This document shows positions 2,860 through 51,568 of a stretch of 64,000 bases of DNA, one piece after another; position 1 is the stretch's first letter, and the number at the start of each line of letters is the position of its first letter. The position numbers and the translations under genes were made by a program. The notes beneath the pieces were generated by a model that was not told the origin of the DNA, made no database searches, and was given only the letters and a program-made list of their open reading frames with translations. The stretch is taken from the NCBI GenBank assembly GCA_963821875.1, contig CAWGFE010000002.1:739643-803642 (forward strand), in the 5' to 3' direction. The stretch is from an uncultured Alphaproteobacteria bacterium (GTDB lineage Bacteria > Pseudomonadota > Alphaproteobacteria > CAVTAV01).

Positions 2860-4164
2860 ATGGTGAAATCGGCCGATGCGAAACGTGATCCGGACGATGC
2901 GGCCTCCGCCGCCGCAGAGAAGGGTCTCTATGATCTCGGCGAGATCCCGCCCCTTGGCTATGTGCCGAAATCCATGCATGCCTGGGCAATCCGCCGCGAG
3001 CGCCACGGCCCGCCCGAACAGGCCATGCAGCTCGAAGTCGTGCCCACGCCGGCGATCGACTCGGACGAGGTGCTGGTGCTCGTGATGGCGGCGGGCGTCA
3101 ATTACAACGGTGTCTGGGCGGGCCTGGGCATTCCTGTTTCCCCCTTCGATATTCACAAGGCCGACTATCATATCGCCGGCTCCGACGCCTCGGGCATCGT
3201 CTGGGCGGTCGGCCGCCGGGTCAAACGCTGGAAGGTCGGCGACGAGGTCGTGGTCCATTGCAATCAGGACGACGGCGACGACGAGGAATGCAATGGCGGC
3301 GATCCGATGAATTCGCCGTCCCAGCGGATCTGGGGTTATGAAACGCCGGATGGATCCTTCGCCCAGTTTGCCCGCGTCCAGTCGCGCCAGCTCATGCCGC
3401 GCCCGAAACACCTCACCTGGGAAGAAAGCGCCTGTTACACCCTGACGCTGGCGACCGCCTACCGCATGCTGTTCGGCCATCGCCCGCATATCCTGCGTCC
3501 CGGCGATCACGTCCTGGTCTGGGGCGCGTCCGGAGGTCTGGGCTCGATGGCGATACAGCTCTGCGCGACCGCCGGCGCCCATGCGATCGGCGTGATCTCG
3601 GACGAGTCGAAACGCGATTATGTCCTCTCGCTCGGCGCCAAGGGCGTGATCAACCGCAAGAATTTCGATTGCTGGGGCCAGCTGCCGCCGGTCGGCGACG
3701 CCAAAGGCTATGCGGACTACATGAAAAGATGCCGCGAATTCGGCAAGGCGATCTGGGCGATCACGGGCAAGGGCAACGATGTGGATTTCGTCTTCGAGCA
3801 TCCCGGCGAGCAGACCTTCCCGGTCTCCTGTTTCGTCGTGAAACGCGGCGGCATGGTGGTGATCTGCGCCGGGACGACCGGCTATAATCTCACGCTCGAC
3901 GCGCGGTTTCTCTGGATGCGGCAGAAGCGGGTGCAGGGCAGCCATTTCGCCAATCTCAAACAGGCCAGCGAGGCGAACCGGCTGGTCATCGAGCGGCGCA
4001 TCGATCCGCGCATGTCGGAAGTCTTCGCCTGGGAGGATATTCCCCGCGCCCACACCATGATGTGGAAGAATCAGCACAAGCCCGGCAATATGGCGGTGCT
4101 CGTCTCCGCCAAATATCCAGGGCTTCGCACCCTTGAGGATGTGATCGCCGCAAACGGCCAATAG
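2860..4164 (+). CDS. ccr: crotonyl-CoA carboxylase/reductase
   Basis: 434 aa with near-colinear identity to characterised Ccr: WAIRRERHG, VLVLVMAAGVNYNGVWAGLG, HCNQDDGDDEECNGGDPM, GASGGLGS Rossmann motif. Length is typical of Ccr. Confidence 0.9.
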   Translation: MVKSADAKRDPDDAASAAAEKGLYDLGEIPPLGYVPKSMHAWAIRRERHGPPEQAMQLEVVPTPAIDSDEVLVLVMAAGVNYNGVWAGLGIPVSPFDIHKADYHIAGSDASGIVWAVGRRVKRWKVGDEVVVHCNQDDGDDEECNGGDPMNSPSQRIWGYETPDGSFAQFARVQSRQLMPRPKHLTWEESACYTLTLATAYRMLFGHRPHILRPGDHVLVWGASGGLGSMAIQLCATAGAHAIGVISDESKRDYVLSLGAKGVINRKNFDCWGQLPPVGDAKGYADYMKRCREFGKAIWAITGKGNDVDFVFEHPGEQTFPVSCFVVKRGGMVVICAGTTGYNLTLDARFLWMRQKRVQGSHFANLKQASEANRLVIERRIDPRMSEVFAWEDIPRAHTMMWKNQHKPGNMAVLVSAKYPGLRTLEDVIAANGQ

Positions 4165-4198
4165 GCGCAATTCAACAGGATCGAGGGACCACCGGGCC

Positions 4199-5899
4199 AT
4201 GACAGCGATGCCTTCAGAAACCGGGCAAACGGCCGGGTCCGACAGCCCGATCGCCCGCGCCCGGGACGCGCTCGACAGCGCGGAGTCTTTGCTTGCCGCC
4301 GCGAAGGATGGTGTCGCGGCCATGGTCGTGAGGAACGGCAAGATTGACCGTTCCCTCATGGAGGAAAATCAGTTTCCGGTTCATGGCTTCGCCTGGATGG
4401 CGACCTATGTCGAGGCGCTGCGCGAAGCTCTTGGCTGGGCCGGGCGGCTCGAGGACGAGGGCAAGTTCGGCCGCCTGGAGAAGCTCATCCTCCAAGCCGG
4501 TTTCGGCGAATATCTGGCGCAGCTCAAGGGCGGCATCCCGATGAGCCAGGGCGAAATCATCCGGCTCGAAGCCCTTGGGCTTGACGCGGAAGATCTGGCG
4601 GCTTTCGAAACGGAGACCGTCAGGTCGCTGATCGCGGAGGGCACGGGAACGACGCTGCGGGCCGAGCTTGCCGAGGTGATCGAGCACACGAATTCCAACG
4701 GGCATTTCGGCGAAGCCGGGCTCGACGACATGCTGGAGATGATCCGGGATCAGTTCCGCCGATTCGCCGACGACAAGGTCATCCCCGAGGCGCCCGGCTG
4801 GCATCATGACGACACGCTGATCCCGATGGAGATCGTCGAGGAGATGGCGGGACTCGGCGTGTTCGGCCTGACGATCCCGGAAGAGTTTGGCGGCGCGGGG
4901 CTCGGCAAGCTCGCCATGTGCGTCGTCTCGGAAGAGCTTTCGCGCGGCTATATCGGCACCGGCTCGCTCGGCACCCGCTCTGAGATCGCCGCCGAACTGA
5001 TCCTCTCCGGCGGAACACCCGGGCAGAAAGTGAAATGGCTGCCCCGGCTCGCCTCCGGCGAGATCCTGCCAACGGCGGTTTTCACAGAACCGAATACCGG
5101 CTCCGATCTCGGCTCGCTGCGCACCCGGGCGGTCAAGGATATGACCGACGAGGGCGATCCGGTCTACAAAATCTCCGGCAACAAGACCTGGATCACCCAT
5201 GGCGCGCGGAGCGACCTGATGACGCTGCTGGCGCGCACCGATCCGAAAGAGACCGGCTATCGCGGCCTCAGCATGTTCATCGCGGAAAAGCCGCGCGGCA
5301 CCGACGAGGATCCGTTTCCCGCCGAGGGCATGACCGGCGGCGAGATCGAGGTGCTCGGTTATCGCGGCATGAAGGAATACGAACTCGGCTTCGACGGCTT
5401 CGAGGTGCCGTCGGAAAATCTGCTGGGCGGCGTCGAGGGCCAGGGCTTCAAGCAGCTCATGGCGACCTTCGAGGCGGCGCGGATCCAGACGGCGGCGCGA
5501 GCGCTCGGCGTGGCGCAATGCGCACTGGAACTCGGTCTCGCCTATGCGCTGGATCGTGTGCAGTTCGGCAAGCCGATCTACGCCTTCCCCCGCGTCTCGG
5601 GCAAAATCGCTTGGATGGTCACCGAGATCATGCTCGCCCGCCAGCTCACCTATTTCGCCGCCCGGCGCAAGGATGAAGGCGAGCGCTGCGATCTCGAAGC
5701 CGGCATGGCGAAACTGCTCGCCGCGCGCGTCGCCTGGGCCGCCGCCGACAACGCGCTGCAGATCCATGGCGGCAACGGCTATGCGCTGGAATATCCGATC
5801 AGCCGTGTGCTGTGCGACGCGCGTATCCTCAATATTTTCGAAGGCGCCGCCGAGATTCAGGCGGAAGTCATCGCCCGGCGGCTGCTGGAGAGCGGCTAG
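4199..5899 (+). CDS. mcd: acyl-CoA dehydrogenase with N-terminal extension, probably (2S)-methylsuccinyl-CoA dehydrogenase
   Basis: 566 aa. ACAD middle and C-terminal domains (TEPNTGSDLGSLRTRA, QIHGGNGYALEYPISRVLCDARIL) preceded by about 170 extra N-terminal residues, as in Mcd. Sits next to ecm and ccr. Confidence 0.75.
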   Translation: MTAMPSETGQTAGSDSPIARARDALDSAESLLAAAKDGVAAMVVRNGKIDRSLMEENQFPVHGFAWMATYVEALREALGWAGRLEDEGKFGRLEKLILQAGFGEYLAQLKGGIPMSQGEIIRLEALGLDAEDLAAFETETVRSLIAEGTGTTLRAELAEVIEHTNSNGHFGEAGLDDMLEMIRDQFRRFADDKVIPEAPGWHHDDTLIPMEIVEEMAGLGVFGLTIPEEFGGAGLGKLAMCVVSEELSRGYIGTGSLGTRSEIAAELILSGGTPGQKVKWLPRLASGEILPTAVFTEPNTGSDLGSLRTRAVKDMTDEGDPVYKISGNKTWITHGARSDLMTLLARTDPKETGYRGLSMFIAEKPRGTDEDPFPAEGMTGGEIEVLGYRGMKEYELGFDGFEVPSENLLGGVEGQGFKQLMATFEAARIQTAARALGVAQCALELGLAYALDRVQFGKPIYAFPRVSGKIAWMVTEIMLARQLTYFAARRKDEGERCDLEAGMAKLLAARVAWAAADNALQIHGGNGYALEYPISRVLCDARILNIFEGAAEIQAEVIARRLLESG

Positions 5900-5973: not shown

Positions 5974-6708
5974 TTATTCCGTCGCGGCCTTCTTGGCGCC
6001 GGTCTTGGCGGCAGCCGATGCGTCCTTTTCCTTCTTCGCCGGGGCGGGATATTCGGCGATATACCAGATGAAGCCTTTCTTGCGGCCCCAGGCCAGCCAC
6101 CGGAAATTATAGTCCGGCGATATCGTGACGCCGAGATTGGGGCCGTCCTCGGTGCAATCCTCGCCGTGATCGTCGCGGGTCCACTGAGCGCCCCAATTGG
6201 CGTAATCGCCGACCTTGAATGTCGTGCCGTTGACCCAGTCGAGTTGCCGGGCGTCGCAGAAATACTGCAGGCCGATCCAGGCTTCCTGGGTCTGATCGAC
6301 ATACAGGTTCTTGTACAGGTTCAGCATCGTCTTCGGCGACTTGATGATCGCAAGACGGCCCTGCCGGCCTTTGTATTTATGACGCTTGGCATCGACCTCG
6401 GCGCCTTCCCAGCTGACGGTCTTGTGCGGCGTCACCAGCTGGAAGTAGCTGCCCGATGCCGGATCGTAGAACGGCGCGTAGAAGCGGCTATCCGGCGGAC
6501 CGTCGCCGAAGGCATGGGAAATGCCCTGCGGGACGTCCGAATCAGATTGCGCTGTGGCTGTCTGGATCGCGCTGAACGTCAGAACGGTCACAAAGGCGCC
6601 CGCCATGATGGGGCCGACACCCGGCACAAGTGCGCGCAGCCGGAGCGGCCGCTTCGTCTCCGCGCGGTTTTCGCGGACTCGCAGAAATCGTCTCATTCCG
6701 ATGAACAT
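5974..6708 (-). CDS. secreted C-type lectin-like domain protein (start uncertain: 6708, 6696 or 6606)
   Basis: Hydrophobic signal-like segment MAGAFVTVLTFSAIQTATAQS. The mature region has the C-type lectin signature WIGLQYFCDARQLDWVNGTTFKVGDYANWGAQWTRDDHGEDC (WIGL, W.NG, conserved Cys) and a Lys/Ala-rich C-terminal tail. Confidence 0.55.
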   Translation of the reverse strand: MFIGMRRFLRVRENRAETKRPLRLRALVPGVGPIMAGAFVTVLTFSAIQTATAQSDSDVPQGISHAFGDGPPDSRFYAPFYDPASGSYFQLVTPHKTVSWEGAEVDAKRHKYKGRQGRLAIIKSPKTMLNLYKNLYVDQTQEAWIGLQYFCDARQLDWVNGTTFKVGDYANWGAQWTRDDHGEDCTEDGPNLGVTISPDYNFRWLAWGRKKGFIWYIAEYPAPAKKEKDASAAAKTGAKKAATE

Positions 6709-6974
6709 GAAAAACAGCCCTCACGCCACAAAAGGTCACACGGCTCGTCTTGGGGTTAATTCCTACGCTGTGATGACCGGTGACCTGACTACACACACAA
6801 CCATGACATTTAATGCGTTAGGATTGTGTGAATAGTCTGCCACACCCCCACCGAAAATGCCAGAAATCCGCCATTTATGGTTAATTTCAGGTCCATCAAA
6901 GTTAACGCCTCTTCTCAATGACGCCCTGTCTGTCCTAGTGTTTGAGAACAGATCCCAGGAGGCGTTCCGGACAT

Positions 6975-7166
6975 ATGGATTTCCTGACCGTTCTAATTAT
7001 TCTCGCACTGCTCGCCGTACTCGGTGTGTTGATCACCGGCATCGTCTCGATGTTTGTGGGGGGCGAGTTCAATCGCAAATACGGCAACAAGCTGATGCAG
7101 ACGCGTGTGTTCATCCAGCTCATCGCCGTTATCCTGATCGGACTGGCATTCCTTTTCCGGCGTTAG
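6975..7166 (+). CDS. HIG1-domain (hypoxia-induced protein conserved region) small membrane protein with two transmembrane helices
   Basis: MDFLTVLIILALLAVLGVLITGIVSMFVGGEFNRKYGNKLMQTRVFIQLIAVILIGLAFLF has two TM helices and the ...GGE...R... loop typical of HIG_1_N. AGGAGG lies 12 nt upstream of the ATG at 6975. Confidence 0.6.
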   Translation: MDFLTVLIILALLAVLGVLITGIVSMFVGGEFNRKYGNKLMQTRVFIQLIAVILIGLAFLFRR

Positions 7167-7187
7167 ATCCGGCGGCGCGGGGCGGCG

Positions 7188-7751
7188 ATGGTCAAGCTCA
7201 ACAAGATCTATACCCGCACGGGAGATTCAGGCGACACCGCCCTCGTTTCCGGCAGGCGCCGGGTCAAGCATGATCTGCGGGTCGACGCCTATGGCACCGT
7301 GGACGAAGCCAATGCGGTTATCGGCCTGGCGCGGCTGGAGTCCGAGGGCGCGATAGACGCGATCCTGTTTCGTGTCCAAAACGATCTTTTCGATCTCGGT
7401 GCGGATCTGGCGAACCCGGCTGATCCGGAAGCGTCGGATAGCGCGCTGCGGATCCTGTCTGCCCAGGTCGACCGGCTGGAACGGGAGATCGACGAGATCA
7501 ACGACACTCTCTCGCCTCTGACCTCCTTCGTGCTGCCCGGCGGCACGTCTCTCGCCGCCAGGCTTCATCTCGCCCGGACCGTCGTGCGCCGGGCCGAACG
7601 GCGCATGACCGCACTGGCGGCAAGCGAAGCGGTCAATCCCGAAGCAATCAAATATGTTAACCGTCTTTCGGACCTTCTCTTTGTCATGGCGCGGCACTGC
7701 AATGACGGCGGCGCCCGGGACGTTCTCTGGGTGCCCGGCGCAAATCGTTGA
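7188..7751 (+). CDS. ATP:cob(I)alamin adenosyltransferase, PduO type
   Basis: MVKLNKIYTRTGDSGDTAL...VDAYGTVDEANAVIGLAR...FVLPGG is the hallmark N-terminus of the PduO/MMAB family. 187 aa. Confidence 0.85.
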   Translation: MVKLNKIYTRTGDSGDTALVSGRRRVKHDLRVDAYGTVDEANAVIGLARLESEGAIDAILFRVQNDLFDLGADLANPADPEASDSALRILSAQVDRLEREIDEINDTLSPLTSFVLPGGTSLAARLHLARTVVRRAERRMTALAASEAVNPEAIKYVNRLSDLLFVMARHCNDGGARDVLWVPGANR

Positions 7752-28665: not shown

Positions 28666-28772
28666 CGGTGGGAGGTTGGACAGGCGACCCGAGCAGAACT
28701 CGTTACGGCTGCTTCCTTCCGGATCTGACCGGGTTGGCGAGGGGCTCGTCCGCCGCCAACCTCCCGGCCCTA
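28666..28772 (-). ncRNA. ffs: signal recognition particle RNA (4.5S / SRP RNA, small bacterial type)
   Basis: The minus strand reads GGGCCGGGAGGUUGGCGGCGGACGAGCCCCUCGCCAACCCGGUCAGAUCCGGAAGGAAGCAGCCGUAACGAG...CCAACCUCCCACC. It contains the universally conserved domain IV motif GGUCAGAUCCGGAAGGAAGCAGCC, and the 5' GGGAGGUUGG pairs with the 3' CCAACCUCCC. ffs sits immediately upstream of dnaX, as in many bacteria. Ends are approximate to within 5 nt. Confidence 0.75.
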
Positions 28773-39579: not shown

Positions 39580-39666
39580 GCCCAGGTGGCGGAATTGGTA
39601 GACGCGCTAGCTTCAGGTGCTAGTGGCCGTAAGGTCGTGGAAGTTCGAGTCTTCTCCTGGGCACCA
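39580..39666 (+). tRNA. tRNA-Leu (anticodon CAG), with long variable arm and encoded CCA
   Basis: GCCCAGGTGGCGGAATTGGTAGACGCGCTAGCTTCAGGTGCTAGTGGCCGTAAGGTCGTGGAAGTTCGAGTCTTCTCCTGGGCACCA. Acceptor stem GCCCAGG/CCTGGGC, anticodon loop cuUCAGGug, T-loop GTTCGAGTC. Confidence 0.9.
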
Positions 39667-45733: not shown

Positions 45734-45955
45734 TTAGTGGACGCTGACGGGCTCCACGCCGTTCTGGACCGCGAGCGCGAAGGCGACCTCTCTGGTCGGC
45801 GCGGCGGCGATCTGGGAGCCACCGGCGGAGAAGATCCCGAATTGCGGCTGTCCGTCGATCAGCATGGGCTTGATATAGACCAGATGATCCGCACCCAGGC
45901 TGGCGAGGATTTCGGTGGTGATCGCAGCCTCTGTCTGTTCACTTTTTTCGTACAT
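45734..45955 (-). CDS. DUF1150-family small protein (co-operonic with hsp20)
   Basis: 73 aa: ...LGADHLVYIKPMLIDGQPQFGIFSAGGSQIA.... This family is routinely found next to Hsp20 genes in Rhizobiales-type genomes. Confidence 0.6.
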   Translation of the reverse strand: MYEKSEQTEAAITTEILASLGADHLVYIKPMLIDGQPQFGIFSAGGSQIAAAPTREVAFALAVQNGVEPVSVH

Positions 45956-45995
45956 GGCACACTTCCTTACTCGGCCGGCTGTTCGGCCGTGTGGC

Positions 45996-46475
45996 TTAAC
46001 GAACCCTCGCGACGGAAACTTCTTCCGCTTCTTCGGGCGTGGCCGTCTCGGGCTTGTCCGCCTTGCCGGCGGTAATCTTCACCTGACGGACGACGGTGCT
46101 GGGTTCCGGGCGAACCAGGTCTATTTCGAGAAGCCCGTTGTGCAGATGGGCGGCCGAGACCTCGATGCCCTCGGCGAGCACGAAGGATTTCTGGAACTGC
46201 CGCGCGGCGATGCCGCGATGGAGATACTCCCGGCTGTTGTCTTCCTCCGGCTGTTTGCCCCGAATGACGAGTTGATCGGCCTCCACGGTCGCTGAAAGCG
46301 CCTCGTTGGAGAAGCCGGCCACCGCGAGCGTAATTCGCAGCGTCGAATCGCCAAGCCGTTCGATATTGTAAGGGGGATAGCCGTCGCTCGATGACTTCGC
46401 GACCGAATCGAGCAACCGCTCGACACGCTCAAATCCGAGCAAGAGTGGGCTGTTGAATAGGGAAACACGCGACAT
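45996..46475 (-). CDS. Hsp20-family small heat shock protein
   Basis: Alpha-crystallin domain: YPPYNIERLGDSTLRITLAVAGFSNEALSATVEADQLVIRGK...GLLEIDL. Confidence 0.85.
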   Translation of the reverse strand: MSRVSLFNSPLLLGFERVERLLDSVAKSSSDGYPPYNIERLGDSTLRITLAVAGFSNEALSATVEADQLVIRGKQPEEDNSREYLHRGIAARQFQKSFVLAEGIEVSAAHLHNGLLEIDLVRPEPSTVVRQVKITAGKADKPETATPEEAEEVSVARVR

Positions 46476-46626: not shown

Positions 46627-46656
46627 TGACGGTGTGAAATGCTGCGGATTCCGCTT

Positions 46657-48345
46657 CTACTGCGGTGTTTCGGTATTTTCCGGCGGTGGGGCGTTACCGC
46701 CCTGATCCGGGGCAGAACCGGCGTTGGCGTCGCCGTTCTGAGGCGCCTGGTCTGGCTGTTGCTGGGCCCCGTCTTGCGCCTCGGGGCCGCCGACCTGTTC
46801 CCAGACCGTCGTCGAAGCGGACCGCGCCGGCTTTGCGGTCTCATCCTTGACCAGCGCATCGATGTCCAGTTTCGCCTTGCCCGGCTGTTTCGCGGCGGGT
46901 GCGGTCTTGGCCGAGGCGGAGCGGGTCATATCGGCAGGCTTGTCGGTCGGCACATGGCCTTCGCTCGGCTCCGGCGAGCGGACCCAGCACGGGCCGCCGC
47001 GCTTGAGGATCTCGTCGCAGATGTCCTTGGCTTCCTTGTAGGTCGTCAACGGACCGGCGTTAAGACGATAGAAGAATCCCTCGGGATCCTTGTGGCGCTT
47101 GCCGAAATCGACCTCGGACCGGCGCGGGCTCAGCGTGCCGATCAGGTCGGCATAGCGCTTGTGCAGAATGTTCCAGCCGGAAATCAGCTGATGGGCCTTG
47201 CGATACGCCGCGATCTGTACGGCATAGCCTTCCGCGCCGAGCAGCGGCGGGACTTCGGTGATCGGTGCGGTCTGGACCGCGGGCTCGACCTTCGGCCTGT
47301 CCGCCGCCTCGGCCCTGGCGGGCTGGATCGGTTTCTCGGTAATTTCGATCGATGCGGGTTCGATCGGTTTTTCCACCGGCTCGATCGTGGCGGAGGGTTT
47401 GCCGACAAGCCTGTCGATCGTCACCTTGGCTTGCGCCTCTTCGGCGCCGTACCGGAAATTCGCCGGCTCCTCGGTATTTTCCTTCGGTGCGCGGGTGCCG
47501 TTCAGCATCATCCGCGTGCGGGTATCCGGGTTCATGGCCTTGATCTCGTCGTAATAGGCGAGATTGCTGTCGACCGTCACCGGATCGAAATCGATGGAGG
47601 CGACTTTCGATGCCTTGTCATCGTGACCGGCCAACGCGTAGGCGAGCGCCAGATTTTGCCGTTCATTCGGTCCGGCCCGGGGGTCGGTGGCCGCATCCTC
47701 CAGCATCTGGATGCTTTCGTTCGCCTTGCCGTTCAGGGCCATCGACAGGCCGAGATTGCTTTCGATCTTGAGATTGTCGGGATCGGCGGCAAGGCCGGCT
47801 TCATATGCGTTCCGGGCGCTTTGATGGTCGCCCGTCGCGTCGAGCGCGAGCGCCTTGCCGTTCAGCGCGGACACGTCCCTCGGATTCTCGGTCAGCACCT
47901 GGGAGTAAAGCGGCAGCGCCAGTTCCGGCCGGTTGATCGCCAGATAGACATCGGCGAGCTTCACCGCGATCTCCGGATTGTCGTCGTCCCGGTCATGGGC
48001 GGCCTTCAGCGCCTCGATGGCCTCCGAATTCGCGCCCATCGCGGCGAGCGACGTGCCGAGCCCGAGCAATGGCCCGGCGTCATGGGGATGCAGGGCATGA
48101 GCCCGGCGGTAGAGCGGAATGGCGGCGTCGTATTTGCCCTCTTTCGCCATCGCGTCGGCCAGGAACTGAAGCGAGCTGCCTTCATGGGATTCGACGACAT
48201 GGGTCGAGGCGGCCGGACGGGCGGCGCTCACTTCGGTCGACGTCGTGCAACCGCCGACAAGCAGGGCGCCGGTCACGATCATCGTTGCCACGGGCAGCGA
48301 GGAAGCCAAAAGGCGTCGCACCGTCTTGGGAGTCATCTGGGACAT
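46657..48345 (-). CDS. TPR-repeat lipoprotein with C-terminal SPOR (septal peptidoglycan-binding) domain
   Basis: Lipoprotein signal MSQMTPKTVRRLLASSLPVATMIVTGALLVGGC. Multiple TPR repeats (AIPLYRRAHALHPHDAGPLLGLGTSLAAMG...). C-terminal SPOR domain (GYAVQIAAYRKAHQLISGWNILHKRY...FFYRLNAGPLTTYKEAKDICDEL). The ORF-track N-terminal extension to 48753 is Arg-rich and non-coding-like. Confidence 0.7.
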   Translation of the reverse strand: MSQMTPKTVRRLLASSLPVATMIVTGALLVGGCTTSTEVSAARPAASTHVVESHEGSSLQFLADAMAKEGKYDAAIPLYRRAHALHPHDAGPLLGLGTSLAAMGANSEAIEALKAAHDRDDDNPEIAVKLADVYLAINRPELALPLYSQVLTENPRDVSALNGKALALDATGDHQSARNAYEAGLAADPDNLKIESNLGLSMALNGKANESIQMLEDAATDPRAGPNERQNLALAYALAGHDDKASKVASIDFDPVTVDSNLAYYDEIKAMNPDTRTRMMLNGTRAPKENTEEPANFRYGAEEAQAKVTIDRLVGKPSATIEPVEKPIEPASIEITEKPIQPARAEAADRPKVEPAVQTAPITEVPPLLGAEGYAVQIAAYRKAHQLISGWNILHKRYADLIGTLSPRRSEVDFGKRHKDPEGFFYRLNAGPLTTYKEAKDICDEILKRGGPCWVRSPEPSEGHVPTDKPADMTRSASAKTAPAAKQPGKAKLDIDALVKDETAKPARSASTTVWEQVGGPEAQDGAQQQPDQAPQNGDANAGSAPDQGGNAPPPENTETPQ

Positions 48346-48359
48346 GCTTTCTCTACCTA

Positions 48360-48950
48360 CTAGCTGTGGCTCTCTACACTCTCGATCAGGCCGGCTATGG
48401 AAACAGTTACGCCCTGCGGATTCATTAACGGCACGACAGTGCAGGAATATTCGAGACTGCCCGTGCTCACGGGAAAACTTTCGCGTTCGAAAATCGGCGC
48501 GCGCGCCTGGAAGCACTTGCCCGCCATGACCCGCACCCAGTCGACCAGCATCGCGGCCAGTTCGGGCGAGCGGCGCATGACGTCGTTCTGCCCGCTGTCG
48601 GCGTCGGTTTCGGCAAGCCCCGCCACGCTCTCGAGAACTCGGCCGATCCGCACGATCCGGACGTTTCGCGATCCGGCTTCCGGCTCGAATTCGAAGCAGT
48701 GATTCCAGATCCCGTTGAGCTCGTTCGTGCCGAAATCCGCCGCGTGGACCCACCCTTTTTCCGACTTGGTGGCCTTCCAGTGGTCCAGCAGCTTTTCCGA
48801 AAGTGTCTTGGGCCGCGCCACCGCGGAGGCAAGACGCTTGTTTTTGATGTTGATGGACAACAGCGACCCGGCGCCCGACAGATCACCGTCGTCGCCCTCG
48901 CCAAATTCATCATCCATGTCAGGCACGTATTCTTTGGGTGCCACGGTCAC
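48360..48950 (-). CDS. hypothetical protein with acidic N-terminus (possibly PAS-like fold), last gene of the parA-like/RHH operon
   Basis: 196 aa, MTVAPKEYVPDMDDEFGEGDDGDLSGAG... then a globular region with no motif I can name. Gaps of only 14-23 nt to the neighbouring genes, same strand. Confidence 0.45.
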   Translation of the reverse strand: MTVAPKEYVPDMDDEFGEGDDGDLSGAGSLLSINIKNKRLASAVARPKTLSEKLLDHWKATKSEKGWVHAADFGTNELNGIWNHCFEFEPEAGSRNVRIVRIGRVLESVAGLAETDADSGQNDVMRRSPELAAMLVDWVRVMAGKCFQARAPIFERESFPVSTGSLEYSCTVVPLMNPQGVTVSIAGLIESVESHS

Positions 48951-48966
48951 GCCCTTTTGCGTTGCC

Positions 48967-49392
48967 TCACTCTGCCGACGGAGGGTTGGCGAGGCACGCG
49001 CAACCGACCCCGGAAATCCTTGCCGCGACCTGTTTCATGTAGTTTTCCAGAGCTTCGGTGAAGATGTCCTGGCTGCTTTTATTGGTATGCGCCGAGAGAA
49101 GCCGCAGCCGGCGATGGGTCTCGTGATCGAGCCTCACCGTCATGGCGATACGGGGACCATCGCCCACCGGTTTCTTGGCGTGCGCCGCGTCGTCCGTCTC
49201 ATCGGCATGATGATGGACGATCAGATCATCGTCGTCCGCACGAAGGCGCTCACCGCCGCGTTCATTCGTATTTGCGGCCGCCTGCGGAAATTTGGCGGGT
49301 ATGCTCGAATAGCGTCCGCCGGGAGAGGGTAGTGCTTGGCCCTTGCGGGCGAGCAGTGAACTGCTGATTTTAGCAGGACCTTTCGTCTGCAT
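48967..49392 (-). CDS. ribbon-helix-helix protein with long disordered N-terminal tail (ParG-like architecture)
   Basis: C-terminal RHH ...GDGPRIAMTVRLDHETHRRLRLLSAHTNKSSQDIFTEALENYM, preceded by about 85 low-complexity residues. GAGGAG RBS 11 nt upstream of the ATG. Lies 23 nt downstream of the parA-like gene. Confidence 0.55.
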   Translation of the reverse strand: MQTKGPAKISSSLLARKGQALPSPGGRYSSIPAKFPQAAANTNERGGERLRADDDDLIVHHHADETDDAAHAKKPVGDGPRIAMTVRLDHETHRRLRLLSAHTNKSSQDIFTEALENYMKQVAARISGVGCACLANPPSAE

Positions 49393-49415
49393 TTGGCGCC
49401 AGTCTCCTCTAGCAC

Positions 49416-50126
49416 TTAAACAGCTTGGCGGCGGCCGAAGCCGGCGCCCGTCGCGGGAGCGCTGCGCGGCTTGATCGAATTCGACTGGAACACCGTGCGC
49501 CGGAAATTGCGCTCCAGACGGTCGCCGAGATAGGCCCAGAGCGTCTGGATTTCCTCGGCCGACTTGCAGCCCGGATCGAGTTCCATGACGGTGCGCCCGT
49601 CGATCATGCTGGCCGCGAAATCGGTGCGCTGGTGAATCGTCAGCGGCGCGACGGTGCCATGCTGCGACAGGGCGATCGCGGCGTCGGATGTAATCCGCGC
49701 GCGCATCGCGGCGCCGTTCACCACGAAAACGAGCGGCTTGCCGGCGCGCTCGACGAGTTCGACGGTAGCGCCGGCGGCGCGCAGGTCATGCGGGCTCGGC
49801 CGGGTGGGAATTACGATGAGTTCGGCGACGGCGATGACATTCTGGATCGCCATGGTAATGGCCGGCGGGGTGTCGATGACCGCCAGTTTGAAGCCGCGTG
49901 CGCGCAACTCCTCGATATCGGTCGCGAGCCGGGAAACCGTGGTGTGGGCGAAGGCCGGCGCCTGAGCGCGGCGCTCGTTCCACCAGTCGGAAAGGCTGCC
50001 CTGTGGATCGGTATCGATCAGGACCACCGGCCCCGCGCCGGCCAATTGGGCCTGAACGCCGATATGTCCTGCAAGCGTGGTCTTGCCCGAGCCGCCTTTT
50101 TGCGAGGCTACCGCCAATACACGCAT
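49416..50126 (-). CDS. ParA/MinD-superfamily deviant Walker A ATPase (small ParF-like type), orphan, not next to parB
   Basis: MRVLAVASQKGGSGKTTLAGHIG (KGGxGKT deviant Walker A), VLIDTDPQGS, ...AVIDTPPA..., 236 aa. Confidence 0.8.
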   Translation of the reverse strand: MRVLAVASQKGGSGKTTLAGHIGVQAQLAGAGPVVLIDTDPQGSLSDWWNERRAQAPAFAHTTVSRLATDIEELRARGFKLAVIDTPPAITMAIQNVIAVAELIVIPTRPSPHDLRAAGATVELVERAGKPLVFVVNGAAMRARITSDAAIALSQHGTVAPLTIHQRTDFAASMIDGRTVMELDPGCKSAEEIQTLWAYLGDRLERNFRRTVFQSNSIKPRSAPATGAGFGRRQAV

Positions 50127-50293
50127 CTAAACGAAATCCTTTCCGGTGGGCGTCTGGGCCAGTCGGGCCAATGGGCTCGTCGGGGCCCGTCGATGGCGTC
50201 GCACCCCCGCGGCGCGCCGATCCGGATCGATGGACCTTATTCCCCTCCATTCAATGCGAAACGTCTTAACATTCTGTAAAATGAAGCGGCTCT

Positions 50294-50447
50294 GCGGGGT
50301 CAGTTTCTCCTTTCTAACTTACCGATTTTATTAAATCTTTCGCGATATTCCGTGCTCCAGATTCGCGCCGGCGTCCCTGACGCGTCCGAGATGCCCGAGG
50401 CGTCTTGAAGTCCGTGGCAATTTGGGGATTCTCGGCGGGGTCAGTTT
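50294..50447. repeat. two copies of a 13-bp exact direct repeat (GCGGGGTCAGTTT; about 17 bp including flanks) 141 bp apart in the divergent parA-like / Sel1-SPOR intergenic region
   Basis: gctctGCGGGGTCAGTTTctcc at 50294-50306 and ttctcgGCGGGGTCAGTTTtgct at 50435-50447. The surrounding 50250-50340 stretch is unusually AT-rich. Confidence 0.4.
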
Positions 50448-50518
50448 TGCTACTATGGTTAAGACGAGGGAAAGCCGCGTGACGGTTCGGTTCCCCTGCC
50501 CTCGTTACGGAGAGGCCA

Positions 50519-51568
50519 ATGATAAAGACGGGCATTGCGGTGCTGGCCGCGGCGTGCTGGCTCGCGGCGGTTCCGGCCCTGGCGGATGTTCAGGCCGGCG
50601 TCGACGCATACAAAGCCGGTGATTACAAACGCGCGATCGATGAATGGATGCCCGCCGCGGCGAAGAACGATCCGGCCGCGCTGTTCAATCTCGGCCAGGT
50701 CTATCGCCTCGGCAAGGGCGTCAAACCCGACCTGCGAGTGGCTGAATCCTATTACAAGCGCGCCGCCGCGCTCGGCCATGTCATGGCCGAAGGGAACCTT
50801 GCCTCGCTTTATCTCGACCGCAACGGCTCGCTTTTCGACGCCAAGAAGGGCGTGGAATGGCTGAAAAAGGCGTCATATGGCGGCAATACCCTGTCGCGTT
50901 ACATGCTGGGCGTCGTCTATTTCAACGGCGACTTCGTGCCGACCGACTATGTCGAAGCCTATGCCTGGATCTCGCTCGCCGCCGCCAAGGGCTTTCCCGA
51001 CGCGGTGAAGGCGGAGCAGACAGTGGTCTCCCAGATGTCTGTGCAGCAAATCGCCCAGGCGAAGAAGCGCGCCGAGGTTATCGAGCAAAAGAGTGACGCT
51101 CTGGTGGCGAATGCGGCGGATCAAGCGTCGAAGCCATCCGCCAAACCGGCTGATGCCGTTAAGATCGCCGACGCCGATCCGGCATCTCCCGATAAGGCGA
51201 AGCCATGGGTCAATCCGGACGCCGCGCCGAAGCCCGAACGCGCCGCGCCCGCCGCCGCCCCGACGCCAACCCCGGAACCCGCACCGGCGACGACGGAGCG
51301 CCCGACTCCGTCACCGGCGGGCGACTACGGCATTCAGATCGCCGCGGTCCGGGACGAGAGCGGCGCGCGGTCGGCTTGGAAAAGTCTTGTCGCCGCCCAT
51401 CCGGACCTCCTCGGCGGACTGACCCTGAACATCGAACGGGCGGATCTTGGAGAGAAAGGCGTGTTCTACCGGATTCAGGCCGGATCGCTCGCCAGCCTCG
51501 ATGACGCGCGGTCGCTTTGCGCGAAGCTCAAGGCGCAGAACGTCGGCTGCCTGCCGGTTCGCCGTTAG
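50519..51568 (+). CDS. secreted Sel1-repeat protein with C-terminal SPOR domain
   Basis: Signal peptide MIKTGIAVLAAACWLAAVPALA. Sel1 repeats (AALFNLGQVYRLGKGVKPD..., LGHVMAEGNLASLYL..., YMLGVVYFNGDFVPTDYVEAYAWISLAAAKG). Pro/Ala-rich linker, then SPOR domain (DYGIQIAAVRDESGARSAWKSLVAAHPDLL...VFYRIQAGSLASLDDARSLCAKLK). Confidence 0.7.
   Translation: MIKTGIAVLAAACWLAAVPALADVQAGVDAYKAGDYKRAIDEWMPAAAKNDPAALFNLGQVYRLGKGVKPDLRVAESYYKRAAALGHVMAEGNLASLYLDRNGSLFDAKKGVEWLKKASYGGNTLSRYMLGVVYFNGDFVPTDYVEAYAWISLAAAKGFPDAVKAEQTVVSQMSVQQIAQAKKRAEVIEQKSDALVANAADQASKPSAKPADAVKIADADPASPDKAKPWVNPDAAPKPERAAPAAAPTPTPEPAPATTERPTPSPAGDYGIQIAAVRDESGARSAWKSLVAAHPDLLGGLTLNIERADLGEKGVFYRIQAGSLASLDDARSLCAKLKAQNVGCLPVRR

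Follow-up and report, generated by a model that had tools for sequence, protein, structure and literature searches.

Introduction

In the TP228 ParF/ParG system, a small ParA ATPase with a deviant Walker A motif and without an N-terminal DNA-binding domain is encoded upstream of a ribbon-helix-helix (RHH) partner with a flexible N-terminal tail, and this tail stimulates ParF (Barilla et al. 2007, cited in PMC9178275). Here, we describe a ParA-RHH gene pair of the same build in a stretch of 64,000 nucleotides from the genome of an uncultured alphaproteobacterium (assembly GCA_963821875.1, contig CAWGFE010000002.1, positions 739,643 to 803,642). This whole stretch is referred to below as the window, and positions are counted from its first letter. 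The window pair differs from TP228 ParF/ParG in several respects. Its sequences are only distantly similar (E-values of 1.6e-16 and 6e-4 for ATPase and partner), and it is chromosomal and vertically inherited. The ATPase carries an extra C-terminal tail, no centromere repeats adjoin the genes, the LLARKGxAxP peptide of the partner differs from the ParG tail, and the pair probably shares an operon with a SPOR lipoprotein.

Several other systems share parts of this arrangement. McdA/McdB, PomXYZ, PpfA and ParC-type systems also combine a ParA-family ATPase with a partner that has a disordered region and a stimulating N-terminal peptide, and they are likewise chromosomal and adjoin the genes of the process that they serve (PMC9178275). 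In contrast to the window genes, none of the non-DNA-cargo systems in that review has an RHH partner or SPOR proteins, and a cytoplasmic cargo is not evident here. MipZ-ParB is the functional analogy for the explanation favoured below. In this alphaproteobacterial system, which is under cell-cycle control, a ParA-family ATPase governs division by means of the nucleoid and a DNA-bound partner, whereas the partner in the window is an RHH protein and not ParB. In the pSM19035 delta/omega system, the RHH partner omega is both a centromere binder and a global repressor, but this system belongs to a Firmicutes plasmid, and nothing in the window corresponds to its heptad repeat operators. The Ti plasmid encodes VirC1, a ParA-like ATPase of ~230 amino acids (aa), and VirC2, a partner of ~200 aa with a C-terminal RHH DNA-binding fold. 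The window ATPase has a partial Pfam VirC1 match, but its partner's RHH profile had no detected similarity to VirC2 among solved structures, and there is no T-DNA or relaxosome context.

ParA/MinD ATPases are a general bacterial placement device, used for chromosomes, plasmids, carboxysomes, chemoreceptor arrays and the division ring, and new cell biology has come to light with each further set of partners. The functions reviewed for the ParA family include those of MinD, McdA, FleN/FlhG, ParI, BcsQ, PpfA and ParC (PMC9178275). An initial annotation of the window, made from the sequence without database searches, had remarked that no characterised positioning system has the composition found here. 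This is borne out, as no such system is listed in the review and full-text literature searches found no published description of a ParA/RHH/SPOR module.

Results

The ParA-RHH pair and its plasmid relatives

The locus consists of four genes on the minus strand and one divergent gene, with coordinates from the list of open reading frames (ORFs) and domains from Pfam:

49416-50126 (-), ParA-like ATPase gene, 236 aa, ParF-type, small and without an N-terminal helix-turn-helix (HTH)
48967-49392 (-), ParG-like RHH partner gene, 141 aa
48360-48950 (-), putatively PAS_5-like accessory gene, 196 aa, or 194 aa if the GTG at 48944 is the start
46657-48345 (-), TPR and SPOR lipoprotein gene, 562 aa (Pfam TPR families and SPOR)
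50519-51568 (+), Sel1-repeat and SPOR secreted protein gene, divergent, 349 aa (Pfam Sel1 and SPOR)

Within the two proteins of the pair, the following elements stand out:

50076-50102 (-), deviant Walker A motif QKGGSGKTT of the ATPase, residues 9-17, with signature lysine K10 (from the translation; invariant in the ParA alignment)
49419-49514 (-), C-terminal tail of the ATPase, residues ~205-236, RNFRRTVF...GFGRRQAV, clade-specific
49324-49362 (-), invariant N-terminal peptide of the RHH protein, SSSLLARKGQALP, residues 11-23, putative ParA-stimulating tail (from the alignment)
49027-49152 (-), RHH DNA-binding core, RIAMTVRLDHETHRRL..., which aligns with the RHH domain of ParG

The first gene had been annotated as a deviant-Walker-A ParA/MinD ATPase of 236 aa, and the ORF, the motif and the Pfam and NCBIfam matches agree with this. 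The Walker A motif reads SQKGGSGKTT, and Pfam matches the protein to CbiA, AAA_31 and part of VirC1. A small ParA (~200-240 aa) with a KGGxxGK[ST] motif and without an N-terminal HTH is what defines type Ib partition ATPases, and the window ATPase has this form. Its best solved relative is TP228 ParF (4dzz, 5u1g), aligned over residues 1-193 of the ATPase and residues 1-194 of ParF, starting at the first residue of the ATPase. The NCBIfam ParA_partition model (NF041546) scored 167.9 bits, below its cut-off of 180, and the plasmid and other chromosomal relatives scored 152-166 bits. Since plasmid and chromosomal relatives alike fall below the equivalog cut-off, the ParA subfamily of the window is placed by these scores as a sister group of the ParA_partition equivalog. 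Scores were also below the cut-offs for VirC1 (NF010423; 39.3 versus 313 bits), minD_bact (28.7 versus 212.9) and cellulose_yhjQ (BcsQ; 56.7 versus 157.85), and the Pfam MipZ match was limited to residues 3-55, the P-loop region.

The ATPase had been called an orphan, a label that has to be dropped because the RHH protein is its ParB-equivalent partner. The RHH-fold partner is encoded directly downstream, as in type Ib systems, at a distance of 23 nt, and this arrangement was found in every examined locus whose contig extends upstream. The ParG architecture proposed for the partner is supported by its family profile (17 homologues), which among solved structures best matched ParG (1p94), followed by pSM19035 omega (E 0.03-0.05). 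Pfam RHH matches were weak, and Pfam ParG was matched by 6/17 family members. Members share an N-terminal LLARKGxAxP peptide, a linker of ~20 to ~130 residues and a core of the form RIAMTVRLDxExHxRL. In the window protein the core spans approximately residues 81-122, preceded by the poorly conserved linker of variable length. Residues L13, L14, R16, K17, G18, A20 and P22 are invariant in the 17 diverse homologues, and the DNA-reading beta-strand is nearly invariant within the lineage of the window. As the ParG tail stimulates ParF, the conserved LLARKGxAxP peptide is likely, by analogy, an ATPase-stimulating element.

A plasmid collection contained ~4,200 relatives of the ATPase, the closest of which are 58-66% identical and encoded on small plasmids. 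Such plasmid ParA-RHH pairs, with 54-66% identity in ParA, are the closest relatives outside the chromosomal clades described below. In each of three plasmids, Comamonas pZM22-2, Xanthomonas pXCV19 and one from Defluviicoccus, ParA is followed by a gene for a short protein that has an N-terminal peptide of the same motif type (SLSAGLIAKKGQAVP; example partner MSKTKASSLSAGLIAKKGQAVP) and a C-terminal RHH. In two of these three plasmids the pair lies beside replication genes. By sequence, the window pair is a clear relative of the plasmid type Ib partition cassette. Because plasmid ParAs are up to 66% identical and their partners carry the same peptide, the window pair has most likely retained DNA binding and a ParG-like action. 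However, the plasmid genes lack the NFRRTVF...GFGRR tail and SPOR neighbours and adjoin replication genes, unlike the window pair.

Two further observations concern the partner protein and its peptide. Near the C-terminus of the RHH protein (window 48982-48990, residues ~135-137, GCACLA) lies a CxC motif that is present in ~12/17 diverse homologues and absent in Sphingomonas citri. An RHH dimer would juxtapose four cysteines, so a metal or redox input is possible. In locus L018 (GCA_050728975.1, JBOHKJ010000206.1), a 503-aa protein encoded at 2885-4396 fuses a response-regulator receiver to a MipZ/ParA-like ATPase, with the sequence SSLLARRGGA, matching the RHH N-terminal motif, in the linker just before the ATPase domain. 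The fusion gene lies just upstream of a ParA (230)-RHH (177)-PAS-like (209) triplet, and its product could be a self-stimulating or competing ATPase.

Conservation of the module across genomes

To place the pair in its genomic context, we scanned metagenomes with the RHH profile. This yielded 312 relatives, of which 80 loci were kept and annotated with hidden Markov models made from our own alignments. Loci of the window-type ATPase clade (clade A) were counted as informative if they contained enough sequence downstream (for TPR/SPOR) or upstream (for Sel1/SPOR). In all 36 informative clade A loci, a TPR/SPOR gene came after RHH, or after RHH and the PAS-like gene together, and a Sel1/SPOR gene was divergent from ParA in 32/35. 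The 196-aa gene was present in 3/36 SPOR-linked loci. From these counts, the conserved core is therefore defined as a divergent Sel1-SPOR gene with ParA, RHH and TPR-SPOR, and the ParA-RHH-196-aa triplet is a lineage variant. In the neighbourhood check that had been proposed, the triplet thus does not emerge as the conserved unit, while the SPOR genes that had been pointed out on both sides of it have their domains confirmed and recur in unrelated contexts far beyond the window.

Synteny extends over the whole neighbourhood in five related uncultured lineages, which by itself is little informative. The loci of Sphingomonas citri, Emcibacter nanhaiensis and Parapedomonas caeni have different flanks, yet ParA, RHH and TPR(-SPOR) are consecutive in each, with overlapping reading frames in Sphingomonas citri. 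The Sel1-SPOR gene is divergent in Emcibacter nanhaiensis and Parapedomonas caeni. The module occurs on contigs of 0.36 Mb to >3 Mb in core chromosomal context, and no rep, integrase or transfer genes were found near it in the near-identical locus L001 or in the Sphingomonas, Emcibacter and Parapedomonas loci. Unlike a type Ib cassette, it does not reside on an extrachromosomal replicon such as a plasmid.

The ATPase is 74-94% identical to chromosomal homologues from Sphingomonas, Sphingobium, Sphingopyxis, Allosphingosinicella, Hephaestia, Pacificimonas, Parapedomonas, Emcibacter and many uncultured bacteria. Median core identity is 84% inside clade A and 61% to plasmid ParAs. Because the ATPase is this similar across Sphingomonadales, Emcibacter and uncultured lineages and has a private tail, its sequence indicates that the chromosomal form is old and selected. 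The tail consists of NFRRTVF, ~15 variable residues and GFGRR, and is found in 56/56 clade A ParAs. The FGRR end also occurs in many ParAs of the second chromosomal clade (clade B), and the tail is absent from the plasmid ParAs of loci L013 and L014. Such a conserved new appendage on a domesticated ATPase suggests a new interaction. FtsZ has a C-terminal peptide with a basic end, to which the FGRRQAV end of the tail may bear a weak resemblance; nothing here relies on this. In four clade B members (L060, L064, L080 and L084), the FGRR motif lies in a longer Arg/Gly-rich C-terminal region, with a total length of ~320 aa.

Clade B ParAs are ~66% identical to the window ATPase and also pair with an RHH protein, and SPOR genes accompanied 0/11 of them. 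Their contexts are housekeeping genes (oxoprolinase, ornithine cyclodeaminase, GNAT), and some members have a PAS-like gene. The clade is represented by these loci:

Clade B: L023, L024, L031, L033, L039, L045, L060, L062, L064

In the window, the gaps are 23 nt between ParA and RHH, 16 nt between RHH and the 196-aa gene, and 14 nt between the latter and the TPR/SPOR gene. No terminator-like site was found on the minus strand within the four-gene block. Because of this and the 14-nt same-strand junction, the four genes (ParA, RHH, 196-aa and TPR/SPOR) probably form one operon, rather than a triplet flanked by the TPR/SPOR gene. The close packing with gaps of 14-23 nt that had been described stands, but the 14-nt gap belongs to the junction with a fourth gene, and the triplet is not the whole operon. 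Core genes flank the block, with pepP on one side and hsp20, DUF1150, ptsN, hpf, rpoN and lptB on the other, which matches the core-gene setting (hsp20, pepP) noted before and is part of a conserved synteny. GC content of the block resembles its surroundings, and GC skew is monotonic across the window. No further ParA, RHH or SPOR genes occur elsewhere in the 64-kb window. The reported absence of parB also holds, since none was seen within +/-10 kb in locus L001.

The two SPOR proteins

SPOR domains bind denuded glycan at septa. The Sel1-SPOR protein has Pfam matches to Sel1 (1.4e-19) and SPOR (1e-11, 45.5 bits), and the SPOR match of the TPR-SPOR protein is 22.1 bits; both are above the PF05036 gathering score of 21 bits. 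The TPR-SPOR protein has a lipobox (...LLVGGC); this lipoprotein signal and the signal peptides were read by eye. Both proteins are exported, which makes them co-workers and not direct cargo of a cytoplasmic ATPase. The suggestion that a SPOR-linked envelope protein is itself the ParA cargo does not fit this. Any physical link must run via other proteins, perhaps via the ATPase tail. The TPR/SPOR protein ends in a low-complexity Pro/Ala/Lys/Gln-rich region of ~100 residues after its SPOR domain (window 46657-46960), and its Emcibacter orthologue has a similar charged tail.

Promoter motifs and repeats in the divergent spacer

A 392-bp spacer separates the ParA gene from the divergent Sel1/SPOR gene. 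We compared it in an alignment of five related lineages and across 36 non-redundant homologous spacers. The features of interest are:

50266-50280 (-), predicted CtrA-box-like motif TTTACAGAATGTTAA (TTNA-N7-TTAA), 154 nt upstream of the ParA start
50455-50462 (-), TTAACCAT, the same as the CtrA half-site consensus, invariant in the five lineages
50324-50340 (-), AT-rich block AAAGATTTAATAAAATC, nearly invariant in the five lineages
50427-50431 (-), GANTC site in AGAATCC(C), with AGAATCC invariant in the five lineages
50290-50306 (+), direct repeat copy 1, CTCTGCGGGGTCAGTTT, at a variable position in relatives
50431-50447 (+), direct repeat copy 2, CTCGGCGGGGTCAGTTT, overlapping a semi-conserved block, with the repeat core not conserved

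GANTC is the methylation site of CcrM. The features conserved in the five lineages are TTAACCATAG, AGAATCC, AAAGATTTAATAAAATC and TCAyTTTACnGAwTsTTAAsAsGTTTCGCATTGAATG. The CtrA consensus is TTAA-N7-TTAAC for the full site and TTAACCAT for the half-site (PMC3692519). In 30/36 spacers, the forward strand carries TTAA-N7-TTA or TTNA-N7-TTAA with a constant spacing to the ParA start, versus 0.5 in shuffles and 3 on the reverse strand. The distance is -63 to -73 in a sphingomonad-like group and -111 to -154 in the group of the window. Compared with the full site, TTTACAGAATGTTAA has two mismatches in the window and one in relatives. The sphingomonad counterpart of these CtrA-like sites is TTAAC-N6-CTTA. 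The half-site TTAACCAT occurs in 10/36 spacers, and twice in the 64-kb window versus 0.26 expected; its other exact copy is at 6877-6884 (-), between the ORFs at 5974-6708 (-) and 6857-7273 (+). GAATCCC was found in 12/36 spacers. As the bases of the boxes survive while their neighbours drift, this pattern of conservation points to a CtrA-type, cell-cycle or developmental promoter.

The spacer also contains the two-copy direct repeat CTC[T/G]GCGGGGTCAGTTT that had been noticed in the initial annotation. Its copies lie 141 bp apart and are identical at 16/17 positions, with an exact 13-mer; by our own estimate, an exact 13-mer pair would arise by chance in a 392-bp spacer with a probability of ~2e-3 (~7e4 position pairs x 0.26^13). 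The repeat had been proposed as an operator or centromere-like site of the RHH protein, and we reject this candidate as unlikely. Both copies are at variable positions in the five lineages, and GCGGGGTCAGTTT is absent from relatives with an identical RHH reading strand. Because the repeat varies while the reading strand does not, it is probably outside the conserved mechanism.

No repeated or palindromic operator common to the 36 spacers was found. The 9-mer AAGGATTTC (10/36 spacers) was considered as an operator and rejected, as it lies at Shine-Dalgarno distance from the ParA start or the Sel1-SPOR start, depending on the group. An adjacent repeated centromere or operator, typical of type Ib systems, is thus missing at the locus, although a distant site is possible. 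With neither this nor a plasmid replicon, the module falls outside the plasmid partition family, strictly defined. When the region and the whole window were scanned with Rfam, no RNA element was found in the long 5' leader, and a scan of the region for the sigma-70 consensus gave no matches. In the spacer of Emcibacter nanhaiensis (L011:6930-6960), the stretch from the CtrA-like box to the ParA start contains a perfect palindrome of 14 bp, GGAAAATATTTTCC, and upstream there is one more copy of ATATTTTCCC. The palindrome is a candidate operator in this species, without a counterpart in the window.

The 196-aa accessory protein

The 196-aa protein has no Pfam match of its own, and its family profile had no match among PDB sequences. 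An AF2 model made with close homologues alone had a pLDDT of 48, and the model was rescued when distant homologues were added. We putatively assign the protein as divergent PAS_5-like (PF07310, DUF1457); literature searches on the function of PAS_5 found nothing relevant. One peptide is conserved:

48837-48875 (-), N-terminal peptide GAGSLLSINIKNK, after an acidic stretch, invariant among close homologues

In distant homologues this peptide is recognisable as (G/A)SLLSIxIR. A scan of GTDB species found the protein in two metagenome-assembled genomes only, which shows that the family, as sampled by sequence, is narrow. In locus L017 the order is ParA, RHH, PAS-like and then the TPR lipoprotein, and loci L018, L045 and L062 have ParA, RHH and the PAS-like gene without SPOR genes in three other chromosomal contexts. 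By its distribution, the PAS-like protein is a recurrent, lineage-specific accessory partner of the ParA-RHH pair; this accessory status follows from its presence in so few SPOR-linked loci. A hypothetical protein with an acidic N-terminus, as first annotated, is indeed encoded here, but it has no place in the conserved unit. Its peptide is loosely like that of the RHH protein (xSLL[AS]), and it may be a second client of the ATPase.

Neighbouring features

Directly downstream of the operon lie hsp20 and then a DUF1150 gene (window 45734-46475, minus strand). This arrangement is kept in loci L001, L004-L007 and L016 and not in Sphingomonas or Parapedomonas, and the adjacency is probably ordinary synteny rather than module membership. 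The block contains long antisense ORFs, such as 46639-48363 (+), of 574 aa, opposite the TPR/SPOR gene, and one of 284 aa opposite ParA; these are the usual artefact of ~63% GC and not genes. None of the three proteins encoded by the ParA, RHH and 196-aa genes matched a PADLOC defence model (E <= 0.01), which rules out membership of a known anti-phage defence system. The window also encodes a bacterial small signal recognition particle RNA at 28668-28764 (-) and a tRNA-Leu(CAG) at 39580-39666 (+), both ordinary.

Discussion

The best explanation of these comparisons is that the module descends from a type Ib plasmid pair, became fixed in the chromosome and was built into a conserved Sel1-SPOR/ParA/RHH/TPR-SPOR unit, into which the PAS_5-like gene was additionally inserted in the lineage of the window. 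It is probably a cell-division or positioning module, and not a plasmid relic. The specific reading that we favour, to which we give somewhat less than an even chance, is a ParF/ParG-type nucleoid ratchet that is timed by the cell cycle and acts with septal SPOR proteins. An ATP-bound ParA dimer would sit on the nucleoid, and an RHH dimer would bind DNA via its beta-ribbon, while its N-terminal LLARKGxAxP peptide, held on a flexible linker, would stimulate the ParA ATPase and so generate a ratchet or gradient. The C-terminal NFRRTVF...GFGRR tail may be a handle to a host partner. The spacer, with its CtrA-box-like and GANTC motifs, would drive both the operon and the divergent gene, so that expression is timed by the cell cycle. 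The SPOR pair would bind denuded septal glycan, and because both co-encoded exported proteins carry SPOR domains, the module would act around cytokinesis or new-pole formation. It may in this way keep septal wall processing in step with DNA, the nucleoid or an RHH-bound complex. With a conserved N-terminal SLLSI peptide of its own, the PAS-like protein may be a lineage-specific second client or regulator. Homologies, gene order, conservation, motifs and the statistics of the promoter motifs are direct results, whereas we infer from sequence that the peptide stimulates the ATPase, that the RHH protein binds DNA, that CtrA controls expression, and what the tail does and how the module takes part in division.

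Several points weigh against this ratchet reading. The SPOR proteins are periplasmic and the module encodes no membrane-spanning link, which makes any coupling indirect. The clade B pair lives without SPOR genes, which means that the pair can function without them. Every CtrA-like box has one half-site that departs from the full consensus, and their recurrence is partly due to shared promoter ancestry. No iterons, tandem arrays or shared repeated 6-7-mers were found near the genes or across the 36 spacers. In some sphingomonads, CtrA mainly controls motility rather than division.

The initial annotation had proposed a positioning system for a septal or envelope cargo rather than DNA partition. 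Its tie to SPOR proteins has gained support, but its exclusion of DNA partition has not, given plasmid homologues of up to 66% identity whose partners have the same peptide. The pair could be a second chromosomal partition system, in which the RHH protein binds one or more centromere-like sites elsewhere, ParA segregates that region and the SPOR genes are merely co-regulated. We consider this unlikely. It would agree with the close homology to plasmid type Ib pairs, partner peptide included, with the conserved DNA-reading strand of the RHH protein and with the clade B pair in its housekeeping context. However, the near-absolute linkage to two SPOR genes in unrelated contexts is hard to attribute to co-regulation alone, and no repeat array or iterons occur near the genes in the window or in the homologous spacers. 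The added C-terminal tail, absent in plasmid ParAs, again suggests a new interaction.

ParG and omega are centromere binders as well as autorepressors (PMC9178275). This raises the alternative of a transcriptional circuit, in which the RHH protein represses the divergent promoters of both SPOR genes and itself, the ATPase is a co-repressor or modulator and nothing is positioned. That all the genes share a single divergent spacer, in which blocks are strongly conserved, is consistent with such a circuit. Yet a median ATPase conservation of 84% and a conserved peptide directed at the ATPase exceed what a repressor accessory needs, and the spacers have no palindromic or repeated operator in common. 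This makes a purely transcriptional role quite unlikely.

We regard it as very unlikely that the module serves to place or assemble a flagellum, a pilus or another polar organelle of the envelope, in the manner of FlhG, MotR or CpaE, with the SPOR proteins as a peptidoglycan-anchored periplasmic scaffold. Its ATPase is ParF-like, and not FlhG-like or CpaE-like, and the module has no flagellar or pilus genes next to it in the window, in Emcibacter or in Parapedomonas, although the Sphingomonas citri module lies ~4 kb from flagellar genes. CtrA-type motifs are present and CtrA often drives flagellar and pilus genes. NCBIfam also reports weak similarity of Sel1-SPOR to MotX (3e-10) and of TPR-SPOR to FlcA and PilW, but these are generic Sel1/TPR repeat matches far under the cut-offs.

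That the module is what is left of an integrated plasmid or mobile element, decaying and without present function, is effectively excluded: although the closest non-chromosomal relatives are plasmid partition genes, the reading frames are intact, identity of the ATPase across orders is 74-94%, the GC content matches that of the surroundings, and the core-gene flanks have conserved synteny with no rep, integrase or transfer genes nearby.

Conclusions

In at least two named orders, a plasmid-type ParF/ParG pair has persisted on the chromosome, where it is more strongly constrained than its relatives on plasmids. The chromosomal lineage has added a tail on the ATPase, a SPOR lipoprotein in the operon, a divergent SPOR partner and a CtrA-type promoter motif. 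A more far-reaching possibility, which we think doubtful, is that a domesticated, CtrA-timed ParF/ParG pair links septal peptidoglycan marked by SPOR proteins in space to the nucleoid or to an RHH-bound chromosomal site, with the GFGRR tail linking it to the division machinery. If so, this would be a new way to coordinate the division site or new pole with DNA in Sphingomonadales, Emcibacterales and related uncultured Alphaproteobacteria. As the module occurs in cultivable genera (Sphingomonas, Sphingopyxis and Emcibacter), its role is directly testable. The ParA accessions there are WP_219749376.1 for Sphingomonas citri, WP_257543179.1 for Sphingopyxis and WP_139941758.1 for Emcibacter nanhaiensis. 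If the link to the SPOR proteins is functional, this would be the first ParA system tied to such proteins, and it would provide a handle on how DNA and septation are coordinated in sphingomonads and their relatives.

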